From the sequence record DRR723986_5581: 64,000 nt of DNA; one strand, given 5' to 3'. A model generated the notes under the pieces. It searched no databases. It had not been told where the DNA came from and saw nothing but the letters and a program-made list of their open reading frames with translations. Positions 25,314 to 56,915 of this stretch are shown here, one piece after another (position 1 is the stretch's first letter; each line of letters opens with the position of its first letter). Both the position numbers and the translations under genes were made by a program.

Positions 25314-25340
25314 ATCAAAAGACCCATCAGACAAAATGTA

Positions 25341-25448: not shown

Positions 25449-25505
25449 TGGTGCGGGCGACGGGACTCGAACCCGTACAGCCTAGGGCCGAGGGATTTTA
25501 AGTCC
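25449..25505 (-). pseudogene. Displaced 3' half of tRNA-Leu(UAA); left island att junction
   Basis: Minus strand reads GGACTTAAAATCCCTCGGCCCTAGGCTGTACGGGTTCGAGTCCCGTCGCCCGCACCA, with no D-arm or 5' acceptor strand upstream. Confidence 0.92.
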
Positions 25506-25562
25506 TAGATATAGACTAATAACTCTCTGTTTTATATATCTATTTTTTGTGTTTTTGTGTGT

Positions 25563-25595
25563 ATGTGTAAGATACTGTGTAAGAGTTTTGACACA
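25563..25595. repeat. TGTGTAA arm-type repeats, left island end
   Basis: TGTGTAA at 25564 and 25576, inverted variant TGACACA at 25589; same motif at the right end. Confidence 0.7.
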
Positions 25596-25914
25596 TAAAT
25601 CAAAAAGCTGCCGCAAAAAGAAGCACCCAAAGGCACCGCAAAAAGCGCCTGCGGCGCGCGCGCCGACACCAATCCATTTGCCCTTCCCAAGCAAGTCACA
25701 GGTCCCGGCAGGCAGGGTCAAGGCCTTGCCGCGCAAGCGGGGGCCGAACGGCCGCCTTGACGCTGACAACGGGCCTGTCACTTAAAAATCAGGCAAATGA
25801 ACCGATGCTGATGAAAACGGACGAACCGCAGACGGCGGTTCGGATTGCTTGCCCAGCCCACGCAGCACACCGGAAGCGGTGCGCAATAGTGAACTTCTGT
25901 TGGAGGCGAAAACG

Positions 25915-27978
25915 CTAATCGACAGAGATACCTTCAGATTGGGCTTTGTCCAAAATTTCAAGCAAGATGAAACTCTGCTTTTCGGTTGGCGTCTTGGCAG
26001 GAACTTGAGTGGCAATTCTCAGAATTCCAACTTCCTTTTCGTTAAAAAGCTTTCGACGATTGCCTTCCTCAAGGATTTCCCCCCACTTCCGGGCAGAAAC
26101 CTTCAGCACAGCAATCTGTGCCTCAATACCGTTGTCTATTTTTTGAGTTTTCTTAGCTTCACGAACTTCGCGTTTTTGCTCATCCTGCGTTTTCAGGCTG
26201 TCAAAAAACGCTTCAGGCAGCAAATCCTCAAGCCGGGAAATGTCACCCTGGATCCGTGTCCAGCAGGCATCCTTTTTACACCACTCCGAGATGTTCGATA
26301 TGCCGCCAGGCGGATTGGAAATGAACTCGTTTACAAACTCACCTGCAATGGCAAGCGCACTGTCCAGGTAAGAAGGAACTGCCTGCAAACGCCAGATGAA
26401 GTCGATGTCGAGAGACTTCTCCTTACGTTTACAGCACTCCGCAAGAGCCGCTATTGCATAAGCAACAATATTTGCCCGATATCCACCATTGTACCATGGT
26501 TGATCAGAAATAATTCTTTCGGCTCTTCGAAAAATAATTGCTCTTACAACAGCCCGTTTGAAATAAAGTTCATTGAAAAAGTCCGGTGATTTCTCCCAAG
26601 CTTTGCCGATCCGCATCGCATATTTGGCGAAGTTCTTCTGAGCGCCAAGATTGACCCATTTGGGATGGTCATCCCAGACGTTCTCAAACTTTGCGAGATC
26701 CGTTTTGGTGAACATCTGCGATTTCGGAGTCTCAGCGAGGAATTTCTTTTTCTGCGCAGCAGTGAGTTTGGATTGCGCGTCAGCAAACTGGCCTCGGGCG
26801 CGCTCGTAAAACCACTTGGTTTCGCGTTGAGACCCTTGCTGGGCCGGTGCCCATATCCTGCGTGAAAAATCCTCCATACGCACATGAAACGGATGGTTTG
26901 AGAAGAAATCCGCAGCATTCACCTTATTCTGCGTATTCGCATACTCGGAAATGCGGGGAACGACCTCTTCACTTTTTTCATCGTCAATAACGGTAAGCTT
27001 CATCTGCACAAAGACCTTGTCCAGATCGGCTTTGTCTCCGCGCCTCGTGTGAAACAGAGAGGCCGTAGTCTGACCGCCGTTCACAATCTGGAGGTCTTTG
27101 ATACCGTCGATGACAAGTCCGTCATCGGTATTCCTTGACGTCACGCTCTCGGCGGTTGCGGTTAAACCGTTGTTGTAGGCAAAGAACATCTGAGGTTCGG
27201 TCAGTATGGTCGTTCGGATACCCTTGTTTACCTTTGCTCGCGCCTGAAGAAAGCTGCGAACGTTCCTCTCAAGCAGTCGGGCGCCATACTTTTCGTAGAG
27301 ATCCGCCAGGATATTTCCCGGAATGACCAGGAGATAGGATTTGTAGATTTCAGATCCCAGATGAGCGGGCAAACAGGCGATCGACTGTCCGAATGTACCC
27401 GGGAAATCAATCTCAAGGGCTTCCTTGTGTCCCCGCGAACTCTGTTGCCGCTGCAGGCGGGAAATATCCCAGATCTGGCGTGTAACGGGAATGCCTTCCA
27501 CAATGACATCATCCAGATCCTGAAATCTGTCGCTGAGTGTCCGCTCGGAAAGCAGATAGCATTCCACGCGCCGGATTGAGCTCCTGCGATCGAAGAGCTG
27601 CCTTGCCAGATCATATTCAGGGGTGGTGACATCCAGCTCCTGATAGAGCTTTCCACGGAGGCTGGCATCTAGAAATCCTGACAACCGTCTGAACGCGGTC
27701 TCCACATCCGTCTTGGTGAGAGTGGCCAGTTCTGTTCGGAACTCAAAATCCGCGATGAAAAGACTCAACAGCCCTTCGTCATCAAACCAGAAGCCGTCCA
27801 CGCGCATGCCGCGGCTTCGATAGTGGCACCCGGAAAAATCCTCAATGGTTCCGCCTTCGCGGAGCTCATCCGTCATGAGCGTCATAAACGACGAAAGCTG
27901 AAAGTCCTGATTCACCTCGGCATCGACCATCAGCCGCTGGCGAAAATCGTGAAAAAATTCTTCGGTTGTCTGATCCAT
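25915..27978 (-). CDS. AIPR family protein (MzaE-like)
   Basis: LLERNVRSFL, FFAYNNGLT, LQIVNGGQTTASL, ISEYANTQNKV. Confidence 0.92.
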   Translation of the reverse strand: MDQTTEEFFHDFRQRLMVDAEVNQDFQLSSFMTLMTDELREGGTIEDFSGCHYRSRGMRVDGFWFDDEGLLSLFIADFEFRTELATLTKTDVETAFRRLSGFLDASLRGKLYQELDVTTPEYDLARQLFDRRSSIRRVECYLLSERTLSDRFQDLDDVIVEGIPVTRQIWDISRLQRQQSSRGHKEALEIDFPGTFGQSIACLPAHLGSEIYKSYLLVIPGNILADLYEKYGARLLERNVRSFLQARAKVNKGIRTTILTEPQMFFAYNNGLTATAESVTSRNTDDGLVIDGIKDLQIVNGGQTTASLFHTRRGDKADLDKVFVQMKLTVIDDEKSEEVVPRISEYANTQNKVNAADFFSNHPFHVRMEDFSRRIWAPAQQGSQRETKWFYERARGQFADAQSKLTAAQKKKFLAETPKSQMFTKTDLAKFENVWDDHPKWVNLGAQKNFAKYAMRIGKAWEKSPDFFNELYFKRAVVRAIIFRRAERIISDQPWYNGGYRANIVAYAIAALAECCKRKEKSLDIDFIWRLQAVPSYLDSALAIAGEFVNEFISNPPGGISNISEWCKKDACWTRIQGDISRLEDLLPEAFFDSLKTQDEQKREVREAKKTQKIDNGIEAQIAVLKVSARKWGEILEEGNRRKLFNEKEVGILRIATQVPAKTPTEKQSFILLEILDKAQSEGISVD

Positions 27979-27979
27979 C

Positions 27980-28942
27980 TCAGGCCCAAACCTCCGTCTC
28001 ATCACACTTGTGGCCTTCAATGACCTCCAGCTGGATATCGTAGTTCAGGCGGGCAAGCCCCGCCGGAATGGCTGATCTGACCAGTCGTGGAAAATCTTCC
28101 TCCACCCTGTAGAACTGCATATCAGCGACAATGAATGCCGGCTCGTCGTAGTCCGGCAACTCGAAATAGCCGATGGACGATATCTTTCTGCCGAATTCAT
28201 TCAAAGCCGCAGGATCTGTGATTTCTCCTTCGACGATCCGAACAAGCTCATTCAGAGAATGAGCATGCGGTCCATGTTCCGGAGCGGTCACCAGACGGAC
28301 TACTGCGAGATACAAGCGATCACTTAATGCCTCGAGCTGATCTTCGGAAGTTATCCGTACTGAGTTGCGTTCTCTCCCGCTTATGGCTTTCGTCTCAATC
28401 GCCATATCGCGCAACTGAAAATCCTGGTGAACCTTATCCGGTCCGCACCAAGCCAACACCGCCTCCGACGGATTGCCGGTAAAAGCCAGAACCTTTCGCA
28501 AAATCCAGAGTTCAGCAAACAGGCCACGCACTTCGCTATCGCTTAGCTTGCGGCTCCTTTTCCCGGACAGGAACGTCCGCCAGCGAATGATCTGACTGCT
28601 GGTAATTCCAAAGGCATTGGAAGAGTCTTCCGCAAGTTCAAGAGCGGCGATCACAGAACGGCAGAAGCTGTAGAAAAGGTCGGCGTTGACATGTTCTTCC
28701 AGCGTAATGACGATGACCTGCACGTTGTCGATCAGCCGAAGATCAACAGCCATCCCCCGCACGGAAAGGTCCAGTCTTTTGAATTCTCTGGCATAGTCGC
28801 CATCAAGCTCAATGATCAGCACATTCTGTGACTGAGTGTCCTTGCCCCATGAGACAGGCACGACCGTATCTGCGGACGCGAGGCGTTTGTTAAACCCGGT
28901 GGGAGGCCGCTTGATATCAGCCCAAGGCAATTGACTAGTCAT
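27980..28942 (-). CDS. PD-(D/E)XK DUF4420 protein (MzaD-like)
   Basis: GLFAELW, WCGP..HQDF..AIETKA, ITSEDQL. Confidence 0.88.
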   Translation of the reverse strand: MTSQLPWADIKRPPTGFNKRLASADTVVPVSWGKDTQSQNVLIIELDGDYAREFKRLDLSVRGMAVDLRLIDNVQVIVITLEEHVNADLFYSFCRSVIAALELAEDSSNAFGITSSQIIRWRTFLSGKRSRKLSDSEVRGLFAELWILRKVLAFTGNPSEAVLAWCGPDKVHQDFQLRDMAIETKAISGRERNSVRITSEDQLEALSDRLYLAVVRLVTAPEHGPHAHSLNELVRIVEGEITDPAALNEFGRKISSIGYFELPDYDEPAFIVADMQFYRVEEDFPRLVRSAIPAGLARLNYDIQLEVIEGHKCDETEVWA

Positions 28943-31616
28943 CAAAATCCTCTTCATCCTCGGGAAGATCGTTCGGCTCTCCAACCATTTTTTCGAGCCA
29001 GACTCGGTTGACCACCACGGAAATCTCTTTTTCAAACAAACCGTCAGGATAACTGAGACCGAATGCCGGGATCTGCCGCCCTGGTTCCAGTCCGGTACCT
29101 GTGATTTTCAGCATGTGCAGCATAAGCAGCGGTTTGTTGCGGACGCGCCGGTAATACCGGTCGGAGACGTTGCTGTTTTTGTTCTTCTCGTCCTGCCGAG
29201 CGTCCTGTTCCGCCTCGTCAATCTGAGGCTTGGTGAGGCCCAGCATTTCATCGCCACGGCTGGCAACACGGTCCTTGTTCATCCTGACAAGGCCGGGAAC
29301 AGCAGGGTCGTAAAGAACCTTTCGCTCCTGATATCCAAGCTTGAAATTATCAAGATCCGCGTCATTTCCAGGCGGAGAAATCAGAAGCACATCGCCGGTC
29401 TTGAACTGGTCCGCAATGGCGTGGAGATATTCCAGAGCATAACGTTTCTTTTCAAGAAAATCGGAATGGACCTGGAAGCGGCCCAGAAATTCCTCGATCT
29501 CTGAGACCTCCACATCACACAGAAACAGCCCCTTTTTCGTCGGCGTGATCGCACCCGAACCTTTTCCGAAACCGGATTGCCAGTATTCGGTGATCAGATC
29601 GGTGTTGCTTTGCGTGATTTTTTCATCCAGTGACAGCGCCGTCGATTCAATAAGGCGGCCGCTGTAGTTCTGCTGAATAATATATTCCTTGCCGGCTCTC
29701 ATCTTGTTGGCGGCAGTAATCAGAAGACTGTCGGGATGAGCCTGAACATAGAGGCCGAAATCGATAGGGCTCAGGTTCTGGAGGCGCATCCGACGAATCT
29801 GCTGTCTCAGTTCATCGGCAGCTTCCGCAATATGGGCGTACCAGCGAATGGAATCCTGCGAGAGATAAACACGGCACAGGTCTTCAAACCCGGGTCGGTA
29901 CCCGAACCATCTCCCCATCTGCATGAGCGTGTCATACATCCTGGTGTTCCGGTACATATAGCTGACAGTGAGCCCTTCAATTGTAAGTCCGCGCGAGAGA
30001 CTTAATCCGCCTATGGCCACTGCTGTAAGACCGACTCCTTCTTTGGCGTACTTTCGGTAATCCAGAGCCTCATCCGACTTACTGTTGACCACAAACAGCT
30101 TCAACCCGCTCATCACGTTGTTGAGCTCGGTCTTGACCTGAGGCCAGGTCACTTCAGAACCGGAAAATTCCTCATCAAACACCTCCTTCAGAGCAGCCAT
30201 GTGAGCATTGGCTGAGGAGACTTTTTCCGGCATGGCGTAGTTTGTGCTTACCGCATCCTTCAACTTCTTCTCGTAAATGCTCAGAAAATTTCGAATGGTT
30301 TTCTGAACATCAACAAATCGCGATGTGTTGATAAGCATCGAACAGTGTTTGTTTCTCTGCCCTCTGAGGTTTCGAATTGCACGGGCAACGATGAAAACGC
30401 GCAGAGCCCTGTACAGGGATGGCGGGAGATCTGTTATCGGATCGTCTTTTTTGTGTGTCAGACGAAGATAATCTTCTCCATCCTGAATCGGGCGAAGAAT
30501 CCGGTCACTGGTCTGTTCGTCGAGGAATACCGTCCGGGGACCGAAGTATGACGTCGGCGCGTCGAGAGAATAAATGAAATCTCTCGGGAAAAGCTCTTCC
30601 CGAACGTCGTCGTCGTATGCGTCCGGATCAATGAATATGTTGGCAAATGGCGTCGCTGTGTATCCGACGTAACATTTTTTCGCAAACAACGAGAGAATGT
30701 TGCGGATTTCGCGGTTGGTTCTGGTTGGTTTGAGATCCGGCTTGTTCGTATTGATGGAAGCATTGTCAGCTTCGTCATCAATCATAAGCATAGGCACGTC
30801 CGTTATCTGTCCGCCACCTTTCGCGTTCATATCGCGGAGCCACCCGTACAACTGGGTTAGCGTGGAAACATTCTTTTTGATGACAAAGACGATCGGTTTG
30901 CTGAAATCGTTCAGCTGCCACCCGCTCTGATTTGCGGTCTTTTTGCTGAAGTCATCGTGAATGGTTGTTACAGTCACCGGGTGCGGGTAATCAGGATTGT
31001 TCAATCCCACACCGACCGGAATACGATCCAGCGGATCGCTGGATTTTCCGACAAACCCCTCGTCGATCCGTTCCTGGGTCTGGCTGCGCAGGTTGTTGTG
31101 AATACCTGCGATTACAATAATAAACTTGTATCCCGCATCTGCTGCTCTGGCGATGAGAGCCAGATAGTTGGCGGTTTTTCCTGATTGAACATGCCCGATG
31201 ACCAGGCCGCGCCGGTCCCAGGCACCTTCACTTCTGGGGTCCTGCAGATGTCCAAGGATTCTGAGTGAAACGTCGCTTAGTGACTGGACAACATCGGGAG
31301 CCCATCCCTCTGAGCGCAAATGCTTTTCATACGCGTCCACGTAACCCCATGAAACGTCGTCGCGTTTTTCGATCCACTTTTCATCATGTTCTGCAGTGGT
31401 ATCAACAAGTGAAATGCCCGAACCCATCCGCGTGTCGACAGCAATCATTGCCTCAACAACCACGCTTCCTATGTCTCCGGTAAAATTGAATACAGACGCC
31501 AGCGCAACAGCTTTCTGCTCCACGACTTCCTTCGTTGGCGGTTCGTCAAGGAGAGACAGGGCACTGATCAGTGCTGAAGTAAAATTTTTCTGATCAAATG
31601 CGTTGCTGACTTTCAT
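28935..31616 (-). CDS. Z1-domain SF2 helicase-like protein (MzaC-like)
   Basis: GHVQSGKT, IDDEADNAS, YTATPFAN, LSRGLTIEGL, DTLMQMGRWFGYR. Confidence 0.92.
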   Translation of the reverse strand: MKVSNAFDQKNFTSALISALSLLDEPPTKEVVEQKAVALASVFNFTGDIGSVVVEAMIAVDTRMGSGISLVDTTAEHDEKWIEKRDDVSWGYVDAYEKHLRSEGWAPDVVQSLSDVSLRILGHLQDPRSEGAWDRRGLVIGHVQSGKTANYLALIARAADAGYKFIIVIAGIHNNLRSQTQERIDEGFVGKSSDPLDRIPVGVGLNNPDYPHPVTVTTIHDDFSKKTANQSGWQLNDFSKPIVFVIKKNVSTLTQLYGWLRDMNAKGGGQITDVPMLMIDDEADNASINTNKPDLKPTRTNREIRNILSLFAKKCYVGYTATPFANIFIDPDAYDDDVREELFPRDFIYSLDAPTSYFGPRTVFLDEQTSDRILRPIQDGEDYLRLTHKKDDPITDLPPSLYRALRVFIVARAIRNLRGQRNKHCSMLINTSRFVDVQKTIRNFLSIYEKKLKDAVSTNYAMPEKVSSANAHMAALKEVFDEEFSGSEVTWPQVKTELNNVMSGLKLFVVNSKSDEALDYRKYAKEGVGLTAVAIGGLSLSRGLTIEGLTVSYMYRNTRMYDTLMQMGRWFGYRPGFEDLCRVYLSQDSIRWYAHIAEAADELRQQIRRMRLQNLSPIDFGLYVQAHPDSLLITAANKMRAGKEYIIQQNYSGRLIESTALSLDEKITQSNTDLITEYWQSGFGKGSGAITPTKKGLFLCDVEVSEIEEFLGRFQVHSDFLEKKRYALEYLHAIADQFKTGDVLLISPPGNDADLDNFKLGYQERKVLYDPAVPGLVRMNKDRVASRGDEMLGLTKPQIDEAEQDARQDEKNKNSNVSDRYYRRVRNKPLLMLHMLKITGTGLEPGRQIPAFGLSYPDGLFEKEISVVVNRVWLEKMVGEPNDLPEDEEDFDD

Positions 31617-33091
31617 GAAAACTCTTTCTTCATAAATATTTCGACCAATTTCTCATTTCTGTCAAACATTCCGGAGGTTCGGACGATTTCAAGAAACTTT
31701 TCCGCATCAATTTTTGCGTTCTGTTCAAGAACATGCTTCAGAGCGTACAGCTTTTCGGAAACCTCATCTTCAGCAAGCATGTATGCGTCCATCATGCGCG
31801 GATGCGTTGAATAATCAGAGTAAATCATTTCCAGATTCAGCGAGGAGGCGATCATCTCCGTTATGAGAAGAAACGATCGCTGCTGTTCAGCGGTGAGATT
31901 CTCTCTGAATTCAGACAGTACCGGGTGTCCCTGGTTCACCGTATACCGAACCGAATGCTCATCGGCGTACCGCTCCCAAAGTGGCGCCTGAGCTTCCTGA
32001 TAGAGTTTCACACCCCGTTTCCGGTGAACGTTCGTGCTTCTGCCTGAGATCCGCGAAATGATCTGTCTCAGCCGTTCTCGAACCTGACGGGGCGGGCTGG
32101 CCCGTGATTTCTTGATATCAATCGTCCAGAGCTCGTCCAGACTGTTGGGAAAATCAATCTGAACACGGGCAAGTTTGGTTGCTTCCCCTTTGGGGATGAG
32201 TCGAAACCAATCCCCCCACGCCATCAGGCGGCCGTTGCGATAGACATACGCACCCTGGTTCGAGATGAAATCACTTCGGTTCTGATAATAGTCGTATTCC
32301 GAAGCGGACAGGTTGCTGTGGTGAGGCAGGATATACGGTTGAATCTTTACGGGTGTCTCGCCCACATACACAACTTCCTCTGCCAGAGTCTGCGTTTTTC
32401 GGTTGAAACGACAAAACGGATCGAAAGACGCAACAGGATGACCGTTCAATGTGATGCTGAGTTTTTTGAAGCCGGCTATTTCACCGGCAAGAAAGCGATG
32501 AAAGACCAGCGCGAGATGCCGTTCAACCAGAGTAAGCTTCGCTGACACGATCTCATCACGCGTATGCCCCGTTTCACTTTCGAACAATCGGTCAAGCTGC
32601 TGCCAGACGACAAGTGTTCCTGAAGGTCCCAGAAGTTCCCTGTAGGGCGTTTCTTCTATCTCCTCATCATCCAGAACACCGAGCAGCCAGTCATTTTCCC
32701 TGTCAACGACCCCGAGATCCCATTCGGCTCCTGCACGAACTCCGTTTTTCGAAGCAATCACCGAAAGTTTTCGACACTGAGAAAACGAAGCAGTCTTCAG
32801 ACCGAGCCCGAACCGCCCGAGGTCCTTTGCAGATCTCGACTGCCTCGGATCGAGCGCACCGTGACGCATGGCTTCGATCAGTTCCTCTGACGTCATCCCG
32901 CAGCCATTATCCGCAATTGCAAGAACCGGCGTATCCGTGCTCAGGTCACAGATGATTTCAATCCGATCCGCTCCTGCGGTAATGCTGTTGTCGATAATGT
33001 CGGCAGTCGCCGTTTCCAGCGAGTAACCCAGATCACGCATCGAAGATGTAAGTGATGATGCTCGCGGCGGGAGCGCCTGGAGTTTGGGCAT
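31613..33091 (-). CDS. MORC/MutL-type GHKL ATPase (MzaB-like)
   Basis: ADIIDNSITA, DNGCGM, LGRFGLGLKTASFS. Confidence 0.9.
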   Translation of the reverse strand: MPKLQALPPRASSLTSSMRDLGYSLETATADIIDNSITAGADRIEIICDLSTDTPVLAIADNGCGMTSEELIEAMRHGALDPRQSRSAKDLGRFGLGLKTASFSQCRKLSVIASKNGVRAGAEWDLGVVDRENDWLLGVLDDEEIEETPYRELLGPSGTLVVWQQLDRLFESETGHTRDEIVSAKLTLVERHLALVFHRFLAGEIAGFKKLSITLNGHPVASFDPFCRFNRKTQTLAEEVVYVGETPVKIQPYILPHHSNLSASEYDYYQNRSDFISNQGAYVYRNGRLMAWGDWFRLIPKGEATKLARVQIDFPNSLDELWTIDIKKSRASPPRQVRERLRQIISRISGRSTNVHRKRGVKLYQEAQAPLWERYADEHSVRYTVNQGHPVLSEFRENLTAEQQRSFLLITEMIASSLNLEMIYSDYSTHPRMMDAYMLAEDEVSEKLYALKHVLEQNAKIDAEKFLEIVRTSGMFDRNEKLVEIFMKKEFS

Positions 33092-48946: not shown

Positions 48947-49022
48947 TGGTGTATTCCCTTGTTCGTTTGTCCGGCCACCCCGTGCGGCCGGTCGCCGACG
49001 CTTCGGGTCGAGCCTCAAGGGA

Positions 49023-49078: not shown

Positions 49079-49304
49079 GCACGGCTCGGCCCAGTCTGGC
49101 GACTGATCCGGCCAGCGGGGGGACGGGTTTCAAAGGAATGGGAAACCCGGTGAAATCACTACACGCGCTGCGATGCCCACTGACAGCGCCAATCACGCGA
49201 GAAAGACGCTTCATGATCTCTTTGGGAATCTGGTAAACAGGAACACTGGTGCGAGAAGCCATAAATCTGTAGGCAACCAAGCGGCAGAAATGGTAGGATC
49301 GGGT

Positions 49305-49517
49305 ATGGCGAAAGTAGTAAAGACAGGCATGCGGTCGGCAAAAACCGGCCAGTGGGTTACAAAACCAATTGGCAGCAAAAAGGCAGCCAAGTTTTCAGAG
49401 GTCGAGGGTCTCAGGATGAACCTCGCCTCGCAGATGCTTACCCAAAAAGCGACTGCTAAGGGCCTCAAGGGTGATGCCTATCGCAGCGAGATCACCAAGG
49501 CCTTCAAAAAGGGCTGA
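49305..49517 (+). CDS. FicA/VbhA-like antitoxin
   Basis: FSEVEGL inhibitory-type motif; ends 2 nt before the fic gene. Confidence 0.7.
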   Translation: MAKVVKTGMRSAKTGQWVTKPIGSKKAAKFSEVEGLRMNLASQMLTQKATAKGLKGDAYRSEITKAFKKG

Positions 49518-49519
49518 CC

Positions 49520-50098
49520 GTGGTACGCTACAATGCGGTCGAGGATCCACTCTGCTATCCCGGCACACATGTTCTCAGGAATATCCCGGACATTCAGGAT
49601 CAGGACAAACTCGATGAATTCGAGCAACTGATGTTCGATTCACGAGCTCAAGAAGACCTGCCGGAAGGCGACTTCGATTTCGAGCATTACAAATCCTTGC
49701 ACAAGCATTTTTTCCAGGACGTATACGAATGGGCTGGAGAATGCCGAAAGATCCGCACCAGCAAGGGACAGACTATGTTCTGTTATCCTGAAAACATCGA
49801 AAAGCAATCCAACCAGCTGTTTCAGAAACTGGCAGATCGCAATTTTTTAGCGAACGAGGCGAACGAAGATGCGTTTGCCGAAAGTGCAGCCTGGATGCTT
49901 GCTGAAATTAATGCCATTCATCCATTTCGCGAAGGAAATGGACGAATCCAGCTTGCCTTTCTCACCATGATCGCCAGAAACGCAGGCTTTGAGTTGGAAG
50001 AAGATAACTTGCGGCCTGCCGAGTTTCTGGACGCGATGATCCGGAGCTTTTACGATGACCTTGCACCGTTATCTGAGGAAATCCGGCGCCTCCTTTAG
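49520..50098 (+). CDS. fic: Fic family AMPylase toxin
   Basis: Canonical HPFREGNGR; DPLCYPGT, FQDVYEWAG. Confidence 0.92.
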   Translation: MVRYNAVEDPLCYPGTHVLRNIPDIQDQDKLDEFEQLMFDSRAQEDLPEGDFDFEHYKSLHKHFFQDVYEWAGECRKIRTSKGQTMFCYPENIEKQSNQLFQKLADRNFLANEANEDAFAESAAWMLAEINAIHPFREGNGRIQLAFLTMIARNAGFELEEDNLRPAEFLDAMIRSFYDDLAPLSEEIRRLL

Positions 50099-51468
50099 CG
50101 CTCGTGCTCCTGCTCGGCTTCTTCGCGCAGATACTCGTCGAGCATCCTTTCATAGGCGATGTCGCGTTCCCGCTGCGAAATCATCTCGCCGTTGGGTCCG
50201 GGGACGGGTCTATCAGGATCATAATCCTGTCGGTCAGGACGAAGCGCTTCGATCTTCTCGCGGACTTCGGTCGGCAAGACGCGCATCTTTTCTCGCTGAT
50301 CCTGCTCGCGGATTTCCTGCATTCGCTGGTTAAGAATGAGATCCCCGGCGATGCGTTGCACCTCCGGTGAGATCTTCCCAGCTGCCTGAAGCGCTTCGAT
50401 CTCTCGATCTGAGTACTCCTGCATGACGGCACGCTCAACGACGCTCTGCTCGTAAGCGGCAATCCGGGTGCTGTTCACCCCGTCGCCGATTTCTCCATAA
50501 GCATTGTCCAGCGCCTGCTCGTACCAGGGTTTTTCGGAACGTTCGGGCGTGGCAGGTTTCCTGTTGGTTTCAGAACCGCTGCGCGGAGCTTCATAAGCAG
50601 GTTCAGACAGAGACGCGGCTTCCAGCCGGTCAAGTTTCCTGTCCTGCCAGTAGCGGTGATGTTCATCCCGCTCCTCGGGCGTCATGTCGGGAGACACCGC
50701 CGGTACCGGCGGCCAGGTCTCCCGACGGGAAAGCAAAGGATATTGCTGACGCTCAAAACTATCGGGACTTTTCATTGCCTTTTCCCCTCTTACGCGCCGC
50801 GCGTGTTCACGCTTGTTCCGGCGCTCCATCGGATCAGGGCCGCGATGCCGGGTCGGTACCGCCCCTATGCCTCGGGCCTTGTAGCTGCGGTGATCGACCC
50901 TGTGGGCCGATCCAATCTTTTCCAGAATAGTGTTGGTCAGGTCCGCCCAGTTCTTGCGCACCTGTTTGACGAACGCCCGCTGTTCCAGCGCGACGATCTT
51001 CCCGCCAAACCCGTCTTCCTCAAGAACTCGGGTTGTCAGCAGGATATGGACATGGGGATTGTGGTCGGTGCCGTCTTCGTGGATGGCTATGTCCGCCACA
51101 CAGCCAAGGTCTACGAAAGGTTTGACGAAGGCCTCCAACAGGGCAGGACGCAGCCGCTCGGGGACATCTCGCGTGATGGCCGCTTCAATGGATTTGGCCA
51201 AACGCGCATCGCGCCGTTTGGCGGTCATGTCCACCCTGTTCCAGAGATCGTTTCGTCGCGCAGCCCACGGCGGCGCTCCTTCCGGCAGGAGGATCTTCGT
51301 GTACACCACGTCTTCGCGGTTCTTGAAATCGACGTGCCGCTGTTCCCGCTCGGACCACAAACGCTCCCCCGCGTTGTAGGCTGCTGTGGCCACCGCGATC
51401 CGTTCGTTCCCGTCCGTGTTGCGCCGGGCAAGATTGTCAATGTGGCAATGGATGTTGCCATCCTGCAT
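50095..51468 (-). CDS. mobA: MobA/MobL (MOBQ) relaxase
   Basis: AVATAAY catalytic Tyr, LWNRV, AIHEDGTDHNPHVHIL, VDHRSY. Confidence 0.9.
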   Translation of the reverse strand: MQDGNIHCHIDNLARRNTDGNERIAVATAAYNAGERLWSEREQRHVDFKNREDVVYTKILLPEGAPPWAARRNDLWNRVDMTAKRRDARLAKSIEAAITRDVPERLRPALLEAFVKPFVDLGCVADIAIHEDGTDHNPHVHILLTTRVLEEDGFGGKIVALEQRAFVKQVRKNWADLTNTILEKIGSAHRVDHRSYKARGIGAVPTRHRGPDPMERRNKREHARRVRGEKAMKSPDSFERQQYPLLSRRETWPPVPAVSPDMTPEERDEHHRYWQDRKLDRLEAASLSEPAYEAPRSGSETNRKPATPERSEKPWYEQALDNAYGEIGDGVNSTRIAAYEQSVVERAVMQEYSDREIEALQAAGKISPEVQRIAGDLILNQRMQEIREQDQREKMRVLPTEVREKIEALRPDRQDYDPDRPVPGPNGEMISQRERDIAYERMLDEYLREEAEQEHER

Positions 51469-51599
51469 GCACACCACCCTCTGCTATCCCAAATCCGTTC
51501 CGGCTTGCACGGCGCGGGGGTTGCAAGGGGGTTTCCCCCTTGCCGCACTTCGGCGTTTGGAGCGCGGCCTTAAGCCCTCGCCGCGCTCTGAACGCCGCA

Positions 51600-51650
51600 A
51601 TGTTGACCAACCTGTAAATACAGGTCGGGCAACATGTAAGTGCGCTGTAC
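51600..51650 (+). other. MOBQ-type oriT
   Basis: 17-bp imperfect inverted repeat (15/17) at 51600-51635 followed by TAAGTGCGC at 51637, matching the RSF1010-family nic core. Confidence 0.85.
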
Positions 51651-51732
51651 AACTAGCTACACGTATTTGTTGACTCTTTTCAAGGTTGTCGAATAATCGC
51701 CATGCAATCCATGAGCTAACTGGGGGATGTTC

Positions 51733-53367
51733 ATGGCGAAGAACCCGTTTGACCTTGGGGACATGCTTGGCAACGAAATGCGAGGCGTGACCACCGGGGC
51801 GAAATTCGGAATGAAAATCGGTCGCGGGCTGGCCAGCTGGAACCTCAAACGCCAGCTGGAACAGGAGGGCTACGATCCTGTTACAATTGAAGCGGCGACG
51901 CAGGCCGTTGCCGCTGGACGTGATCCCAAACCCATTCTGGAGCAAGCCCGTCAAGCCTACGCTCTTAGAGACAAACAGGAGGAGATGCGGCGCAACCCGC
52001 CTCCCATCCACGGGTCTGCTCGCTGGTCCACCCGGGACGACGTGGAGCAAGCCGGGCTGTTCAGACAATCGAGCCGCCGCACTCTCAATCTTGGCAACTT
52101 CGAGGGCCAGCGCGTCAACTGGGACGGCGAAAGCCACCTGCTGACCGTGGCCCCTACCCGTACCGGCAAAAGCGCCATGCAGGTTATTCCGAACCTGCGG
52201 ACTTACGGCGGCTCGGCTGTGGTGCTCGATCCCAAAGGAGAGATTTACGAGCACACCGCTGCCTGGCGATCCCAGATGGGTCCTGTCTACGTGTTGAACC
52301 CATTCGCGGTCGAAGGTGTTCCCGAGACCGACGCCTTCAACCCCCTCGACAGCGTAACCGACAGTCAATCCGCGCTTGAAATTGCCGAGATCCTCTACCC
52401 GCGCACCCATGACGACAAGCAGCAGTTCTTCGAGAATGAGACGGTGGGTTTTTTAGCGGCAGCAGTTGAGTTCTCGGCACGATTTGCACCGCCCAGTCAT
52501 CGCAATCTCGGCACCTTGCGTGATGCGCTATCCACACTGGATGGGCAGTTTCATGGCCTTTTGAAAGCGATGAGCAACGAGATTTTGCCGCCTTCAATCC
52601 GGAATGCCGCCCGAAATTTTCAGACAAAGTCGCGCGATACGGGACAACCCCGTGTGCTGGACAGCCTTAACACGCATCTCAGGATCTGGGACACGCCAGG
52701 ACTTCGTAAAGCCACCAGCCGTTCGGAATTCGACTTTGCGAAGCTGAAAGACCAGACAGCCACAGTCTACCTTGTTTTGCCGTTCTCGAAGATCACTCCC
52801 TTCTCCACCTTTGTCCGGATGGTGTTTGCCGCAGCGCTGGACGCGATGGTTCTCACACCGAAGAAACCGCACACACCCGTCCTGTTCGTGCTTGATGAGT
52901 TTCTGTCACTCGCACCGGATGAACGATTTGTTTCGGCTCTCAGGACCCATGCCAGCGCCGGTGTACGGCTTTGGTTCTTCCTGCAAGACCTGCCGACGCT
53001 GGAACAGAAATACCCGACGACGTGGAAATCCTTCTTGCAGGTCGAGGCCAAGACGTTTTTCGGGACTGATGATCCCTACACTGCGGATCTGATTTCCAGC
53101 TATTTGAGCGACCGGACCATCGCCTACGACGTTCCGAATGTTTCGGGCACGACGACAGGAGGCGCGTCTCCTTCCACCGGCTATTCCATTTCCGAAAATC
53201 TTCACCTGACCGCCCGGAGGCTCCTGACGCCGGATGAAGTCATCGGCCTGCTGCGAGGCACGGCAACGGGGCGAAAGGCCATCCATTTCCTGCGGGACTT
53301 AAGGCACCCGCTTCAGACCGATCTTACTCCCTGGTTTCTGAACACTTCGCCGAAGGAGCAATCATGA
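51733..53367 (+). CDS. VirD4/TraG-like coupling protein
   Basis: HGSARW, VAPTRTGKS, VVLDPKGE, FNPLD, LFVLDEF. Confidence 0.88.
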   Translation: MAKNPFDLGDMLGNEMRGVTTGAKFGMKIGRGLASWNLKRQLEQEGYDPVTIEAATQAVAAGRDPKPILEQARQAYALRDKQEEMRRNPPPIHGSARWSTRDDVEQAGLFRQSSRRTLNLGNFEGQRVNWDGESHLLTVAPTRTGKSAMQVIPNLRTYGGSAVVLDPKGEIYEHTAAWRSQMGPVYVLNPFAVEGVPETDAFNPLDSVTDSQSALEIAEILYPRTHDDKQQFFENETVGFLAAAVEFSARFAPPSHRNLGTLRDALSTLDGQFHGLLKAMSNEILPPSIRNAARNFQTKSRDTGQPRVLDSLNTHLRIWDTPGLRKATSRSEFDFAKLKDQTATVYLVLPFSKITPFSTFVRMVFAAALDAMVLTPKKPHTPVLFVLDEFLSLAPDERFVSALRTHASAGVRLWFFLQDLPTLEQKYPTTWKSFLQVEAKTFFGTDDPYTADLISSYLSDRTIAYDVPNVSGTTTGGASPSTGYSISENLHLTARRLLTPDEVIGLLRGTATGRKAIHFLRDLRHPLQTDLTPWFLNTSPKEQS

Positions 53368-54314
53368 CCGATAACGCCTACCGCATTCCTCGCCACTCAG
53401 TCGGCTTAACGATATTCCTTCTTATGGCAGGCGCTACACTCGGTGCTGTCTGGGGACTTTTTCTATCGTCGTTCGTCGCCACGGCTTCACTCGCTGCGGG
53501 GGGACCTCTGGCCTTGCTGATAGCCGGTCCACTCCTGTTCGCGATCTATGGGGTCGGCACGACTTACATCGTGTTTGGCGCTCCCCTATGGGCGCTATTC
53601 GGGGGAATGTGGTTCGCTGCGTCATCTTCCAGAGACACCGGATCTGCTGCGACACAAATGGGCGTTACGTTCTTTTCGAAGAGTCATCCCATCAACCAAG
53701 CAACACAACGGATGGCGCAACAGCTTGATCTGCCGCCTGTCCGATACGTCGGCTGGTTTGGCTCAGACGACATAAACGCGTTTGCGATGGGGACAAGCAA
53801 TCGCTATGCGCTTGTGGCCGTCAGCAAAGGCGCAATCGAAAACCTCTCTCAGGAGCAATTGGATGCCGTTATTGCCCACGAACTGGGTCACATAGCCAGC
53901 AACGATATGGAGAGGATGACCTACGCGCTTGGCGTTCGTGAATCTCTTACGTTTTTCCTGATTTTCCGAGGGCTCAAGAAATTCGCACGTTGGGTTTTCA
54001 CGCCGTTGTCAGAGCTGGAGCTTCTGAGGTTTTCGCGAGCACGAGAATTCACAGCTGACGCCATCTCGGCTCATCTAACATCGTCAGAGGCTATGATCTC
54101 GGTGCTTGAAACACTGAAAGGCGCAAAACTCGAACCGCAGCCCCACAACCAGGCCTTTGTGATGATGGCGGCGCTCAGCGACAACACCTTGTTTTCAACA
54201 CACCCGTCCCTGGACGACCGCATCAATGCACTGCGCGCACTTCCGGTTTCGACTTCCGTTCAACAACCGGATCAGGAAACATCCGTCCCCAGTCCGCAGC
54301 CAATTTCGAGTTGA
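53364..54314 (+). CDS. M48/HtpX-like membrane zinc peptidase
   Basis: NAFA, AVIAHELGH, SRAREFTAD, STHPSLDDRI. Confidence 0.88.
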   Translation: MTDNAYRIPRHSVGLTIFLLMAGATLGAVWGLFLSSFVATASLAAGGPLALLIAGPLLFAIYGVGTTYIVFGAPLWALFGGMWFAASSSRDTGSAATQMGVTFFSKSHPINQATQRMAQQLDLPPVRYVGWFGSDDINAFAMGTSNRYALVAVSKGAIENLSQEQLDAVIAHELGHIASNDMERMTYALGVRESLTFFLIFRGLKKFARWVFTPLSELELLRFSRAREFTADAISAHLTSSEAMISVLETLKGAKLEPQPHNQAFVMMAALSDNTLFSTHPSLDDRINALRALPVSTSVQQPDQETSVPSPQPISS

Positions 54315-54349
54315 GATTGAACAAACGCTCTGCTAGCAGGAAGCACCAC

Positions 54350-54640
54350 GCGGACGTGGTGGAATCGGTAGACACAAGGGACTTAAGTCAAAATTGAGTG
54401 CACCGGCGGAAACGCCGGATGTAGAACTGCTCAAATTCGGGGAACCCTGTCAGATGGCAATCCCGAGCCAAGCCTCGCAAGAGGAAGGTGTAGAGACTAG
54501 ACGGGCAGCACCTACGGCAATTGCTAGGGTGAAGGTATAGTCCAGACCACAAACGCCGGAAGGCGGCGGTGAAAGCCGTAGCTGGTAAGAAAATCCCTCG
54601 GCCCTAGGCTGTGCGGGTTCGAGTCCCGCCGTCCGCACCA
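54350..54640 (+). tRNA. trnL: tRNA-Leu(UAA), exons 54350-54384 and 54590-54640, interrupted by a group I intron
   Basis: Spliced product has acceptor GCGGACG/CGTCCGC, anticodon arm AGGGA-CTTAAAA-TCCCT, long variable arm, T-arm GCGGG-TTCGAGT-CCCGC and ACCA. Confidence 0.93.
54385..54589 (+). ncRNA. 205-nt self-splicing group I intron (IC3-like), no ORF
   Basis: P1 ACUU/GAGU with U.G at the splice site, P2 GAAA tetraloop, P AAATTCGGGGAA, Q AATCCCGAGC, R GTAGAGACTA, S GAAGGTATAGTCC, terminal G. Confidence 0.93.
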
Positions 54641-54836
54641 ATCTTCACTTGCTTTGAACACCTCTCGCGCCTTTACGTTCTTCACGCGAGCACGCGTGAG
54701 GACCAGCCTTGGCTTACAAACAAAAGCCCATTTGACCTTTAATCGAAGTTCTTTTCCATCTCGCCGATTTGGCACTCTCAGTAAGCGCAAAGACGCTAGT
54801 GTGGTACAATATTGGTATCAATGAAAGATCGAAGAT

Positions 54837-55508
54837 ATGGATAATTCAATACCGACAATCTGGGAAGACGACGAATACGTTCACATCCCTGAAGAGCTTT
54901 TCAAACATCTACCGCCAGAATTTCGTGAGGCTGTTGAAGCCCGAAAACAACGTGGGCTTGATACGCTACAGATTGCAGACAAAGATATCCAAAACCTCAT
55001 TCGGTTGACTAATGCTATTCCGACATCATCTAGCCTTAGCTATATTTATCATCGCATGCGAACCGCAAAATTTGATATGTCTGCAGCAGCGTTGATGGAA
55101 CAGGAAATGCTGACGACGGCATTCGTCGTGACTTATGCTCGTTTGTTCGTAACAAGCAATGGCGTAGGCGGCATTTCTAGGGACAGCATACCAACTCAAC
55201 TTCGAGATATTCACGACAGTATTATAGAGCTCCGCCACAAGCGTTACGCCCATAACGGTGGGCACGAAACGATTGGCAATGGTATCCAACTTGAATTTGA
55301 CGACAAAGGATTTCACATAAATTTGCAGATGAGCTTAGGCCTCTACATCGGCGGTCGAGATGAATGGGAGGAACTCATTGCTTTTATAGACGCGCACATA
55401 CATGAGCGTCTCTTCAAAATACTCGACCGCCTCAAAGAAAGAACCGGTTATGATTGGACCTTTCCAGTCGGACCAGCACCGGAATGGGTTGGAGACTATG
55501 GCAAGTAG
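54837..55508 (+). CDS. Hypothetical protein with HEPN-like motif
   Basis: AFVVTYARLF..HDSIIELRHKRYAH (R-x5-H); AT-richer than the flanks. Confidence 0.6.
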   Translation: MDNSIPTIWEDDEYVHIPEELFKHLPPEFREAVEARKQRGLDTLQIADKDIQNLIRLTNAIPTSSSLSYIYHRMRTAKFDMSAAALMEQEMLTTAFVVTYARLFVTSNGVGGISRDSIPTQLRDIHDSIIELRHKRYAHNGGHETIGNGIQLEFDDKGFHINLQMSLGLYIGGRDEWEELIAFIDAHIHERLFKILDRLKERTGYDWTFPVGPAPEWVGDYGK

Positions 55509-55535
55509 ATTAAGGTTTGCTATCCGCTGACTTGG

Positions 55536-56726
55536 TTAAACTGTCCTGTGCGCATTCCGCTTTGCATGCTCGATGATCTGCTTCTTCGATTTTGCCTTCC
55601 GCTTCACGTTGACAGCCGCCGCGCTGATGCTCGTGGCAATGTGTGAGGCGTAGTATTTCTCAATCATCTCGACGCTGGTGCGGCAGTTTTTGGCGATCTG
55701 GTAGATGTCCGCCCCCTCCATCAGACGCAGGCAGATATAGGTGTGGCGAAGGCTGTAAGCCGTCCGCCGGTTCCCTTCCCGGTCGAACTTGAGATTTTCT
55801 TCGTCCAAAATAGCGTTGAACATGATCACGTGGTTGCCGGGAAACACGGGATCATCCGGCTTCGGCAGATTGCGTTTGAGCAACCGCTCGAACGGAAAAA
55901 CGGCGTTGGGCGTGCTTTTGCAATACCCGACGCCACGCTTACCCCGCACCTGAATGAGGAGGATTGTTTCGTCGGTTTCCTCGTCGTGGACGATTTCGAC
56001 ATCCCGGACCTGAAGCCGTTTGGCTTCATCCGGTCTGAGGCCAGTATTGGCCAGAAAGAGGACATAGTCGCGCAGCTGTTCAGCATGCCACTGATACCGC
56101 CCACCCTGATGCCGTTCGGCACGTTTCCGGGTGGCGGTGTATAACTGTTTGTACTCTTCCGGTGAGAACCAAGCGCGGTGAGATATTTTCTCGGCGGACC
56201 GATAGGGCATCGACAGATCCGGCAGATGGGTGAGCCAGCCGTGCCTAATGGCCGTCTTGAGCACCTGTCGAAGAGTTACGATCTCCTGATGCATTGTGTT
56301 CTTGGCAGGCGGTTTGCCCTCAGGTGACGTGTTGTGCCGCATGACGCGGTATTCCTGCACCTTGCCCGCAGTCACTTCCGACAACCCCAGTTCGCCAAAG
56401 AACGGCAGCAGGTAAAGCCGCAAACGGCGTTCGTTCCCCGCCACATAAACCCGGTTCCGGGCACCGCCGGTCACAACGTCATATTCTTCAAGGTAGCGCT
56501 TTGCCGCTTCCTTGAAGGTCCGCTCATCCTTCAGCGTGCCGCCTTTTTCCTTGGCCTTTAGCCGAAAGAACCAATCCTCGGCAATCTCCTTCGCCAGGGA
56601 GAGACTTTCTTCTCCTGTGCTGATGCGCCGGTTCTTGCCCATGAGGTAGGTGGAGCACTGCCACTTCCGGCTGTTTTCCCGCCGATAGATGCTGACTTTG
56701 CCGCCCAAAATGGTGTGCTTTTCCAT
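55536..56726 (-). CDS. int: Island tyrosine integrase
   Basis: NTGLRPDE, RGKRG, YSLRHTY, RTSVEMIEKYY. Confidence 0.92.
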   Translation of the reverse strand: MEKHTILGGKVSIYRRENSRKWQCSTYLMGKNRRISTGEESLSLAKEIAEDWFFRLKAKEKGGTLKDERTFKEAAKRYLEEYDVVTGGARNRVYVAGNERRLRLYLLPFFGELGLSEVTAGKVQEYRVMRHNTSPEGKPPAKNTMHQEIVTLRQVLKTAIRHGWLTHLPDLSMPYRSAEKISHRAWFSPEEYKQLYTATRKRAERHQGGRYQWHAEQLRDYVLFLANTGLRPDEAKRLQVRDVEIVHDEETDETILLIQVRGKRGVGYCKSTPNAVFPFERLLKRNLPKPDDPVFPGNHVIMFNAILDEENLKFDREGNRRTAYSLRHTYICLRLMEGADIYQIAKNCRTSVEMIEKYYASHIATSISAAAVNVKRKAKSKKQIIEHAKRNAHRTV

Positions 56727-56766
56727 CTTTGACTCTCACCTCACTTTCCGGCTTTTATTCTACCAG

Positions 56767-56787
56767 ACTGTGTAACAGATGTGTAAG
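56767..56787. repeat. TGTGTAA arm-type repeats, right island end
   Basis: ACTGTGTAA at 56767 and ATGTGTAAG at 56779; both also present at the left end. Confidence 0.7.
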
Positions 56788-56838
56788 TCAGAAACGGATG
56801 AAAATGATCACGAAAAAGAGACTAAGTGATTGAATTTA

Positions 56839-56915
56839 TGGTGCCCATGATCGGAGTCGAACCGATACTGGAAGGATTTTAAGTCCCTTGTGCCTACCAA
56901 TTCCACCACGCCCGC
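56839..56915 (-). pseudogene. Chimeric pseudo-tRNA: host tRNA-Leu(UAA) 5' half fused to a non-cognate island 3' half
   Basis: GCGGGCGTGGTGGAATTGGTAGGCACAAGGGACTTAAAATCC+TTCCAGTATCGGTTCGACTCCGATCATGGGCACCA; acceptor GCGGGCG vs CATGGGC mispairs; no long variable arm. Confidence 0.88.

Follow-up and report, generated by a model that had tools for sequence, protein, structure and literature searches.

An island inserted in the anticodon loop of a host tRNA-Leu(UAA) gene carries an intron-bearing tRNA-Leu(UAA) gene as a candidate replacement

We describe a genomic island of about 31.4 kb in a 64,000-nucleotide stretch of DNA from sequence record DRR723986_5581 (the window, by which we mean that whole stretch at its full length). 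The island lies within the anticodon loop of a host tRNA-Leu(UAA) gene, which it has divided into two pieces, and it carries not far from its integrase gene (int) a complete second tRNA-Leu(UAA) gene that is interrupted by a group I intron. Coordinates of the features are collected in Table 1.

The host tRNA-Leu(UAA) gene, which has no intron, can be read in two pieces about 31.4 kb apart on the minus strand. Searched with nhmmer, the 5′ half (56874..56915) matches exon 1 and the 3′ half (25449..25505) matches exon 2 of a profile of intron-bearing tRNA genes, and the acceptor strands of the two halves, GCGGGCG (from 56915) and CGCCCGC, pair at seven of seven positions. The core common to the two junctions is exactly 13 bp, GGACTTAAAATCC (56874-56886 and 25493-25505), comprising the 7-nt anticodon loop and 3 bp of stem on each side, and the bases flanking it differ between the junctions. 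At the junction beside int the host 5′ half runs into an element-derived tRNA-like 3′ piece, and the acceptor stem of the resulting chimera has only three Watson-Crick pairs and one G-U pair of seven. Default ARAGORN finds no tRNA gene in the whole window; the general tRNA model of Rfam nevertheless gives the chimera 38.5 bits. This junction is a dead chimera at which no tRNA is rebuilt and, because the element brings no matching 3′ half, the insertion, which shares only 13 bp with its target, leaves the host gene as two dead pieces. A 25-nt probe from the 3′ half matches only that half and exon 2 of the island-borne gene, with no match in 100 shuffles, and a chance origin of the split-gene match is excluded. 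A preliminary description of this DNA had proposed separated halves about 31.4 kb apart with perfect acceptor pairing, a shared core of 13 bp and nothing more, and an int-side junction that does not restore a tRNA, and all of this is borne out. The 3′ end of the element-derived piece (56839..56873) resembles that of tRNA-Phe; similar tRNA-like pieces occur at two related loci (L013 and L051), and two further members of the integrase family (L017 and L061) adjoin intact tRNA-Phe(GAA) genes with the end GGGCACCA.

The same site can be followed in contigs of four public runs (X1, X2, X3 and X18), which were compared with the window over 54000-57600, parts without coverage not being counted as absence. 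A 165-kb contig of X18 continues from 56881-57600 straight into a 51-nt tRNA 3′ half, seven letters being shared, so that an uninterrupted 86-nt tRNA-Leu(UAA) free of any island, in other words the empty site, stands at this locus; its flank is that of a close relative, with nine other letters and one gap over 720 nt. The contigs of X1, X2 and X3 contain int, an identical right-hand junction and the island-borne tRNA gene, and each has a 51-nt piece resembling exon 2, in host orientation, 30-32 kb further on. The stretch with the 223-aa open reading frame (ORF) that separates the tRNA gene from int in the window is absent in X2 and X3, whose contigs are equally long and which may be one strain, and is replaced by 4536 other letters in X1.

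The tRNA-Leu(UAA) gene that the island carries is overlooked by default ARAGORN, as are intron-bearing genes at the 80 related loci considered below, and intron mode is required to find it. In that mode ARAGORN reports a tRNA-Leu(taa) at 54350-54640 whose 205-nt intron separates U34 from A35 (CTT/AAAA), and the Rfam model Intron_gpI matches over its full length, its 54.1 bits exceeding the gathering score of 50. From the end of the gene to the int stop codon (55536) the distance is 895 nt, in agreement with the earlier claim of a complete second tRNA-Leu(UAA), its core interrupted by a group I intron, about 1 kb past int. The intron has the features of IC3-type group I introns of the 'Leu.3Ug' class, that is, a U-1 to G wobble in P1, a terminal G and insertion between positions 34 and 35. 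In an alignment of 42 intron-bearing genes over their full length, the catalytic core is invariant; of the 82 pairs in the consensus fold, 42 show compensatory changes on both sides, the splice-site U-G pair is present in 41 of 41 genes and the terminal G is invariant. Conservation of this kind is the signature of what would be a working ribozyme. Once spliced, the intron-bearing genes would recreate the core GGACTTAAAATCC; as DNA, 8 of the 13 bases remain at the left exon border and 7 of 13 at the right, and the two stem arms of the island tRNA, which are the likely core-binding sites, lie 205 bp apart. A scan for promoters and terminators around int and the island tRNA gene returned nothing above chance.

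The product of int scores below threshold against Pfam PF00589 (18.5 bits, cut-off 27.1), and a profile search of PDB sequences with the int family gave no match. The top Foldseek matches of its AlphaFold2 model (mean pLDDT 77.1) are XerA, the Int of Tn1549, XerH, lambda Int and Cre, at probability 1.00 and with E values down to 2.9e-9, and, on the strength of this model, int is predicted to have the tyrosine-recombinase catalytic-domain fold and to be a divergent member of that group. The model starts at its N terminus with a small β-sheet domain of the arm-site-binding kind. Residues R231, R327, H328 and Y359 are invariant in 22 relatives and, standing where motifs of this kind are expected, are candidate catalytic residues; some relatives have PF00589 in precomputed annotation, and several are named integrase by their sources. 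Among 50,697 phage records int found no match. A candidate arm-type site between the core and the int start codon consists of an 8-bp direct repeat (CTTACACA, a 3-nt spacer and GTTACACA), overlapping a promoter-like match (56785->56757) that is itself not above chance. A like double motif occurs no more than 130 nt upstream of int in 50 of 79 loci under a strict pattern, and looser variants are visible in most of the others. In the other att arm, a second candidate site (CTTACACA, a 4-nt spacer and CTTACACA) is the single match of the double motif in the window, against none in 100 shuffles, and like motifs are also found at the far ends of the islands at L001 and L011.

Table 1. Features of the island, its junctions and its immediate flank (window coordinates)
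Feature	Position	Strand	Basis or remarks
Integrated island, ~31.4 kb	25506..56873		bounded by two core copies
Host tRNA-Leu(UAA) 5′ half, tRNA positions 1 to ~41	56915->56874	-	acceptor GCGGGCG, D arm, anticodon stem-loop
Host tRNA-Leu(UAA) 3′ half	25505->25449	-	long variable arm, T arm, CGCCCGC, ACCA
Right core copy	56874-56886		inside 5′ half; attL in tRNA orientation
Left core copy	25493-25505		inside 3′ half; attR
Element-derived tRNA-like 3′ piece	56873->56839	-	5-nt variable loop, T arm, CATGGGC, ACCA
Candidate arm-type site, 8-bp direct repeat	56769..56787	-	between core and int start codon
int, putative divergent tyrosine recombinase, 396 aa	55536..56726	-	AlphaFold2/Foldseek, family relatives
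ORF, 223 aa	54837..55508	+	variable spacer between island tRNA gene and int; without family match
Island tRNA-Leu(UAA) gene	54350-54640	+	exon 1 54350-54384, group I intron 54385-54589, exon 2 54590-54640
M48 peptidase	53364-54314	+	Pfam E 1.3e-29
TraG/VirD4-type coupling protein	51727-53367	+	Pfam E 3.5e-47
MobA/MobL relaxase	50095-51477	-	Pfam E 1e-56
Fic protein	49520-50098	+	Pfam
ArdA-domain protein	48228-49280	-	Pfam
AAA_13 / PDC-S06 protein, PrrC-like C-terminal part	45550-47874	-	PADLOC PDC-S06 5.9e-136, PrrC 8e-13
Metallophosphoesterase and AAA_27/SMC-like ATPase pair (SbcCD-like)	40734-45313	+	Pfam; weak PADLOC LmuB-like match
Second integrase-like gene	39321-40202	+	Pfam
Mza-type defence cluster, complete	25915..35059	-	Pfam; PADLOC MzaB-E, E 1e-17 to 1.7e-126
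Cytosine methylase	33503-35059	-	Mza cluster
Vsr	33091-33546	-	Mza cluster
MzaB	31613-33091	-	Mza cluster
MzaC	28935-31616	-	Mza cluster
MzaD	27980-29035	-	Mza cluster
MzaE/AIPR	25915-28020	-	Mza cluster
Candidate arm-type site, other att arm	25564..25583	-	~60 bp inside far island end
Flanking integrase-like gene	23934..25418	-	Pfam DUF6538 and weak PF00589

The integrase belongs to a very large family: at least 7284 of 8000 candidates scored are relatives at E ≤ 0.001. The loci compared here are the best 80 of 580 confirmed relatives, one genome per species and the window not counted; their integrases are 58-82% identical to that of the window, and they come from Alphaproteobacteria, Acidobacteriota, Planctomycetota, Binatota, Gemmatimonadota, Nitrospinota and others. 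The target is the 5′ half or core of tRNA-Leu(UAA) at 43 loci and tRNA-Leu(CAA) at 21; it is tRNA-fMet at seven, tRNA-Phe at two, tRNA-Arg at two and a Lys-like 3′ half at two, and three could not be read. The Leu 5′ halves or cores lie 126-171 nt upstream of int and break off directly after the anticodon loop or after the loop and TC. Since what all Leu junctions have in common is the 7-nt loop, in many cases with TC after it, we place strand exchange in the loop, as the preliminary description had done. The junctions at fMet, Phe and Arg that ARAGORN calls are whole tRNAs, so these relatives restore their targets, and two islands (L035 and L063) restore tRNA-Leu. Both ends were found for the islands at L001 (9.5 kb) and L011 (11 kb), where the separated acceptor strands are paired and there is no repair. 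In the window's own clade of the integrase tree, which has nine rows, six other members are in tRNA-Leu(UAA) (L001, L002, L003, L013, L020 and L051) and one is in tRNA-Leu(CAA) (L076), the locus of the last (L024) being cut off. Switches between UAA and CAA targets occur many times on this tree, which was made with FastTree and whose deep branches are weakly supported.

A few of these loci depart from the common layout. Six from Planctomycetota (L016, L023, L030, L039, L065 and L071) have a core about 140-180 nt upstream of int that is preceded by non-tRNA sequence with a double arm motif, and look like intact attP sites in the chromosome, from tandem elements or something else; L071 has, in addition, a partial intron and exon 2 about 360 nt further upstream. 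Extra partial copies of the intron and exon 2 also lie beyond the island-borne tRNA gene at L025 (11641-11895), L033 (14010-14229), L076 (11467-11609) and L026 (14955-15003), and copies of this kind, a few hundred bases to a few kilobases off, hint at tandem or recombined elements.

Intron-containing tRNA-Leu(UAA) genes occur at 39 of the 80 loci, five of the 39 running into a contig end or a stretch of N's; a tRNA-Leu gene that an island brings along, with or without an intron, is here called a spare. ARAGORN called the other 34 completely, and in 31 of these the spare lies 58-240 nt after the integrase match on the same strand; at L001 and L002, as in the window, it is further away (1.4-5 kb) and on the opposite strand, and at L070 it is 1.3 kb away. 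The 43 islands in tRNA-Leu(UAA) comprise 36 with an intron-bearing gene, four with an intron-less tRNA-Leu(UAA), one that restores its target, one (L041) with none, and one at which the contig edge is reached just as the gene begins. Among the 21 in tRNA-Leu(CAA), ten carry an intron-less tRNA-Leu(CAA), one an intron-bearing tRNA-Leu(CAA) (L021) and one an intron-bearing tRNA-Leu(UAA) (L033), and nine have no spare, one of these restoring its target. Among the UAA targets that can be judged, 40 of 41 thus have a spare, and at CAA targets 12 of 20 do (Fisher p = 3e-4, relatedness ignored). The codon UUA is read only by tRNA-Leu(UAA), and UUG can be read by both tRNAs; the distribution of spares is what complementation would predict. 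The loci without a spare fall into at least three separate lineages of the FastTree integrase tree, all of them CAA-targeting. The island at L041 belongs to a spare-less, mostly CAA-targeting lineage. Three spare-less islands (L008, L012 and L018) have in common a conserved GC-rich stretch with several hairpin-like repeats, which occupies the place of the relatives' tRNA gene, about 60-300 nt downstream of int. A survey of int homologues for co-occurrence with intron-bearing tRNAs, proposed with the preliminary description, thus found an intron in 36 of 40 replacement genes at UAA targets, and the idea that the island supplies a replacement tRNA in trans is well supported by the near-constant presence of a spare at such targets.

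In their acceptor strands the spares also resemble one another more than they resemble the genes of their hosts. Their acceptor strand is GCGGGCG in 24 of 32 and GCGGACG in five of 32, regardless of the phylum of the host, whereas the hosts show a dozen different strands, and spare and host strands are the same in only 3 of 24 parsed loci. By this measure, the spare appears to travel with the element. Repair with a 3′ half would fail in most hosts because the acceptor strands of spare and host differ in most parsed loci, and this mismatch is a plausible reason for carrying a whole gene.

In five genomes with related islands (G001-G005, of which G002 is the chromosome record behind L002 and is titled a complete genome), no other intact tRNA-Leu(UAA) was found. 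A search of these genomes with a D stem and loop pattern for tRNA-Leu(UAA) had genuine matches only at the island junctions; of 21 other matches, the 19 inspected include no tRNA-Leu(UAA) and the remaining two are repeats of the same 17 letters. The pattern overlooks unusual D stems, and the 5′ half at L051 escaped it. The Rfam model RF00028 has exactly one match in each of G002 to G005, which is the island-borne gene. In G002, 57 matches to the tRNA model include ten of class-II length, namely five Ser, two Tyr and the leucine tRNAs CAA, TAG and GAG; Leu UAA is not among them. The suggestion that the host could depend on the island for UUA decoding is therefore partly supported, by these five genomes, and is limited for the window itself by the chance of another copy in its own genome. 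Any such dependence would last only while the island is in place, because precise excision would restore the host gene, and would become permanent once the island decays, as at L122 and L123.

Decayed islands of this kind came to light when the Rfam intron model was run on 151 genomes of the family to which G001 belongs. It gave 22 intron matches in 21 genomes, all within tRNA genes: ten in Leu(UAA), one of which is the spare at L001 itself, nine in Arg(CCU) and three in others. At L122, whose site is syntenic with that of L001, the spare and an inverted part of the island are kept, but int and the 5′ half are absent and the 3′ half has decayed. An attR-type 3′ half with a loop mutation is left at L123; at L125 an int fragment of 59 aa directly precedes the spare, and at L130 a 5′ half lies upstream of the spare at a distance of 165 nt. 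Within 10 kb of the remaining five of the nine further Leu intron loci there are no island scars. In such relic cells the host gene could, from what is left of it, no longer be rebuilt, and the intron-bearing gene would now be the resident gene. That decayed islands keep only the intron-bearing tRNA suggests a route by which the intron may spread.

Intron-bearing tRNA genes also occur in other settings. The nine tRNA-Arg(CCU) genes among the 151 genomes (L134-L142), several of which come from small genomes (1.1-2.0 Mb), have no integrase of this family within 10 kb and no tRNA halves nearby and look like resident genes. At L131, a truncated 5′ half of tRNA-Lys(CUU) (9741-9783) lies about 150 nt upstream of a complete tRNA-Lys(CUU) with a group I intron in its anticodon loop (9937-10220); the opening 34 nt of this half are 100% identical to those of exon 1, no integrase lies between the two, and the locus may be what is left of the same strategy aimed at another tRNA. 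Plasmids, too, carry a relative of the intron-bearing tRNA gene, full-length and unannotated, in 1284 records that are mostly of Escherichia, Klebsiella, Salmonella and Acinetobacter; its identity is about 73%, and nhmmer aligns it with the whole profile at E = 5e-69. The copy on pCTX-M3 (L157 5001-5299; NC_004464.2 61823-62121), which ARAGORN oddly reads as tRNA-Stop(tta), has aac(3)-IId and ISCfr1 as neighbours, and the 5 kb around it contain no integrase of this family.

The explanation that, as a whole, fits best is one that we consider likely: insertion in the anticodon loop, trans-complementation by an intron-bearing spare, shielding of that spare as a likely part, and spread of the intron by decay of the islands. 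The mobilizable element of about 31.4 kb has entered the anticodon loop of an intron-less host tRNA-Leu(UAA), probably by means of a tyrosine integrase with arm-type sites. While it is integrated, its own tRNA-Leu(UAA) would supply UUA decoding, as its anatomy and the comparison with relatives suggest, and bringing a whole gene instead of a 3′ half would allow one element to enter hosts whose tRNA-Leu acceptor stems differ. Because the intron sits between U34 and A35, in the middle of the loop where crossover takes place, the spare has no contiguous core as DNA and would yield an ordinary tRNA-Leu(UAA) after splicing. When the island decays, the intron-bearing gene would be left as the tRNA-Leu(UAA) of the cell, and the intron would spread.

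Several observations weigh against one or another part of this account. One of the islands in tRNA-Leu(UAA), that at L041, has no cargo gene within 4.2 kb, and its metagenome-assembled genome (G156) yielded neither another copy of tRNA-Leu(UAA) nor a group I intron. The RF00005 list of G002 also contains no tRNA-Leu(CAG), so that list may be incomplete, and a further tRNA-Leu(UAA) may lie elsewhere in the window's own genome. RNA-labelled runs contained only small parts of the query sequence, and one such run, X18, gave a DNA-like contig (that of 165 kb) which is silent on transcription or splicing of the island-borne gene. If there were no real dependence, with another tRNA-Leu(UAA) at hand or the loss tolerated, the island tRNA would be ordinary cargo, as L041 and the eight CAA-target islands that manage without a spare might seem to suggest. 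We think this quite improbable, given the retention of the gene at UAA targets as compared with CAA targets, the lack of a second copy in the five genomes, the decayed islands that lose int yet keep the tRNA, and the restriction of UUA to a single tRNA. More improbable by far is that an island specific for tRNA-Phe was inserted by accident at a look-alike site, the two loops differing by one base (CTGAAAA and CTTAAAA). The junction is identical in the contigs of three other runs, all readable other members of the window's clade are in tRNA-Leu, and the anticodon of the island tRNA matches the target; the tRNA-Phe-like end of the element-side piece, which together with the integrases beside intact tRNA-Phe genes at L017 and L061 speaks for such an accident, is better read as a vestige of an older target.

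As to the intron, we think it probable, from the interrupted core, that neither the element's own integrase nor related ones can use the intron-bearing copy as a substrate; to the proposal that the intron is retained for this reason we give rather less than an even chance. The intron could instead be a passenger, the ancestral element having captured a tRNA-Leu(UAA) that was already intron-bearing, and persist since only precise deletion removes it and not through protection from integrases; trans-complementation would still hold, and we regard this alternative as having very nearly an even chance of being correct. All island-borne introns are homologous and possibly go back to one acquisition (they fit one profile, with E values of 1e-54 to 1e-88, and share one core, as a single origin would have it), and counts of introns are for that reason not independent: the 36 cases at UAA targets may be one inherited event. 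Intron-less cargo genes exist, namely four tRNA-Leu(UAA) and 10 of the 12 at tRNA-Leu(CAA) targets, and three of these ten (L022, L040 and L044) keep an 11-bp core identical to that of the target, differing only further out in the stem. Neither the nine tRNA-Arg(CCU) nor three Lys-like intron loci have an integrase of this family within 10 kb (by tblastn and the family HMM), and an independent second case of the arrangement did not come to light. Moreover, cyanobacteria and plastids stably inherit the same kind of intron without, to our knowledge, any such role or any link to an integrase, so retention alone proves little. What a passenger would not lead one to expect is that the intron lies exactly in the middle of the 7-nt crossover loop, and that introns are present in 36 of 40 cargo genes at UAA targets against 2 of 12 at CAA targets (relatedness ignored). 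Furthermore, the four intron-less tRNA-Leu(UAA) spares (L023, L030, L047 and L071) read GCA/TGC beside the loop where all targets and all intron-bearing spares read GA/TC, and they alone among the tRNA-Leu(UAA) sequences of the set lack the G30-C40 pair beside the core, as if by a second solution, with the caveat that these four cases may represent one or two events. The benefit might also fall to the resident, in that an intron-bearing tRNA-Leu(UAA) leaves no attB and blocks further islands, decayed islands leaving behind an immune allele, which would be a bacterial version of the idea of Randau and Soll on archaeal tRNA introns (in print for archaea; PMC3293823). None of the nine further intron-bearing tRNA-Leu loci in the 151 genomes has an intact int (four have island scars and five have none), and none of the 43 UAA targets is intron-bearing, the loop being uninterrupted in every one; few intron-bearing targets are expected anyway, about 7% of the sampled genomes carrying such a gene. 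This possibility, which overlaps with shielding of the spare rather than excluding it, seems to us unlikely. Only a little less doubtful is the broader proposal that the intron is kept as a breaker of the crossover site, which would allow a family of islands spanning phyla to carry what would otherwise be its own target, and that these islands are a main vehicle by which the tRNA-Leu intron has spread outside cyanobacteria, destroying the resident gene and leaving, once they decay, an immune sole copy; we put it forward tentatively.

The remaining gene content bears on what kind of element this is. Pfam scans covered 31 ORFs, 27 in the island and four flanking it, and among the 27 island ORFs no family of mating-pair-formation or type IV secretion structural proteins and no phage structural or lysis family was found. 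Because neither mating-pair-formation nor phage genes appear among the ORFs scanned, we read the island as an integrative mobilizable element, which it looks like in combining int with a relaxase and a coupling protein; together with the M48 peptidase gene, the latter two form a transfer module (50095..54314). The AAA_13 / PDC-S06 protein has 774 aa, and its C-terminal part resembles PrrC, of the anticodon nuclease family, on an island that itself carries a tRNA gene. The 223-aa ORF has no match in Pfam, NCBIfam or PADLOC. Outside the island, the flanking integrase-like gene starts 31 nt beyond the split tRNA's 3′ end and is followed by genes of the HicB type, and a classical island was probably already present at the host tRNA's 3′ end before this insertion; across the 25 kb to the left, no repeated copy of that tRNA end turned up.

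In the sublocation classes that Williams is said to have set out in 2002, classical islands and phages in tRNA genes restore the gene with a duplicated 3′ part. The island described here shares with them a tyrosine integrase, a sublocation in the anticodon loop and a position of int beside the tRNA, and differs in bringing an entire gene in place of a duplicated 3′ part. It is closer in this respect to the tRNA-dependent lysogeny of actinobacteriophages, in which trans-complementation follows a non-restoring integration (Guerrero-Bustamante and Hatfull 2024, PMC10865867). These phages likewise have a tyrosine integrase acting in a host tRNA gene, with arm-type sites flanking the core; the common core is 8-10 bp, as against 13 bp here, and no tRNA is rebuilt in either case because the core is too short; and phage Gaia has a tRNA-Leu(CAA) just downstream of int, in the position seen at most of our loci. 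The elements described there are temperate phages of Actinobacteria, whereas ours is a mobilizable island with a relaxase and a coupling protein; it works like the phage system yet is not a phage, in view of the absence of phage families among the island ORFs scanned and of any phage record that int matches. For the tRNAs of the phages the paper reports no intron (in PMC10865867 the word appears a single time, in the title of a reference), and the requirement for the tRNA was established by experiment for the phages, while for the island we infer it. Prophages of Sinorhizobium meliloti, as PMC11476347 describes them, inactivate tRNA-Leu(UAG) and carry a replacement, which is similar in that the host is alphaproteobacterial, a tRNA-Leu is disrupted centrally and a foreign-looking replacement lies on the element; they are prophages, the isoacceptor is another one, and the word intron is absent from PMC11476347.

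The intron too has precedents. Williams 2020 (bioRxiv 10.1101/2020.01.27.920355) mapped 5292 intron-split bacterial tRNA genes, including those of the 'Leu.3Ug' class, which the island intron resembles in its CUU/AAAA insertion, U-1 to G wobble, terminal G and IC3-type core; the main text of that work counts introns by phylum and draws no link to islands that split the host copy. Randau and Soll, as cited in Sugahara et al. 2012 (PMC3293823), proposed that archaeal tRNA introns and split tRNA genes block integration. The idea is that recombination cannot take place at an attachment site with an intron in it, and that the addition of one might profit an element, as we suggest here; that case concerns archaea and protein-spliced introns, whereas ours concerns a ribozyme, in Bacteria, in the element's own spare gene, and PMC3293823 itself states that there is no direct evidence for a link between introns and integration. 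The preliminary description was aware of no account of this arrangement. This holds for the intron variant, since no description of an intron-bearing replacement tRNA on a bacterial island was found in full-text literature (supplements and the table of Williams 2020 may bear on this), but not for trans-complementation, which has been in print for phages since 2024.

With these observations, tRNA-dependent integration is no longer confined to a few actinophages and takes in a very large family of islands that are not phages. They would also explain how such elements target hosts across phyla, in that the anticodon loop is conserved and acceptor stems are not, so that repair by a 3′ half fails and a whole gene is brought. 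Because default tRNA finders miss the island-borne gene (none was called in the window), genomes with such islands will seem to lack tRNA-Leu(UAA). A cassette of integrase, attP and spare tRNA could become an integration tool of broad host range. If the shield reading is true, it would provide the first comparative support in Bacteria for tRNA introns as shields of attachment sites, and it offers a concrete and testable role for a bacterial tRNA intron that has long been unexplained. Finally, replacement of the host gene followed by decay of the island offers a route by which the intron may have come to be so patchily spread.

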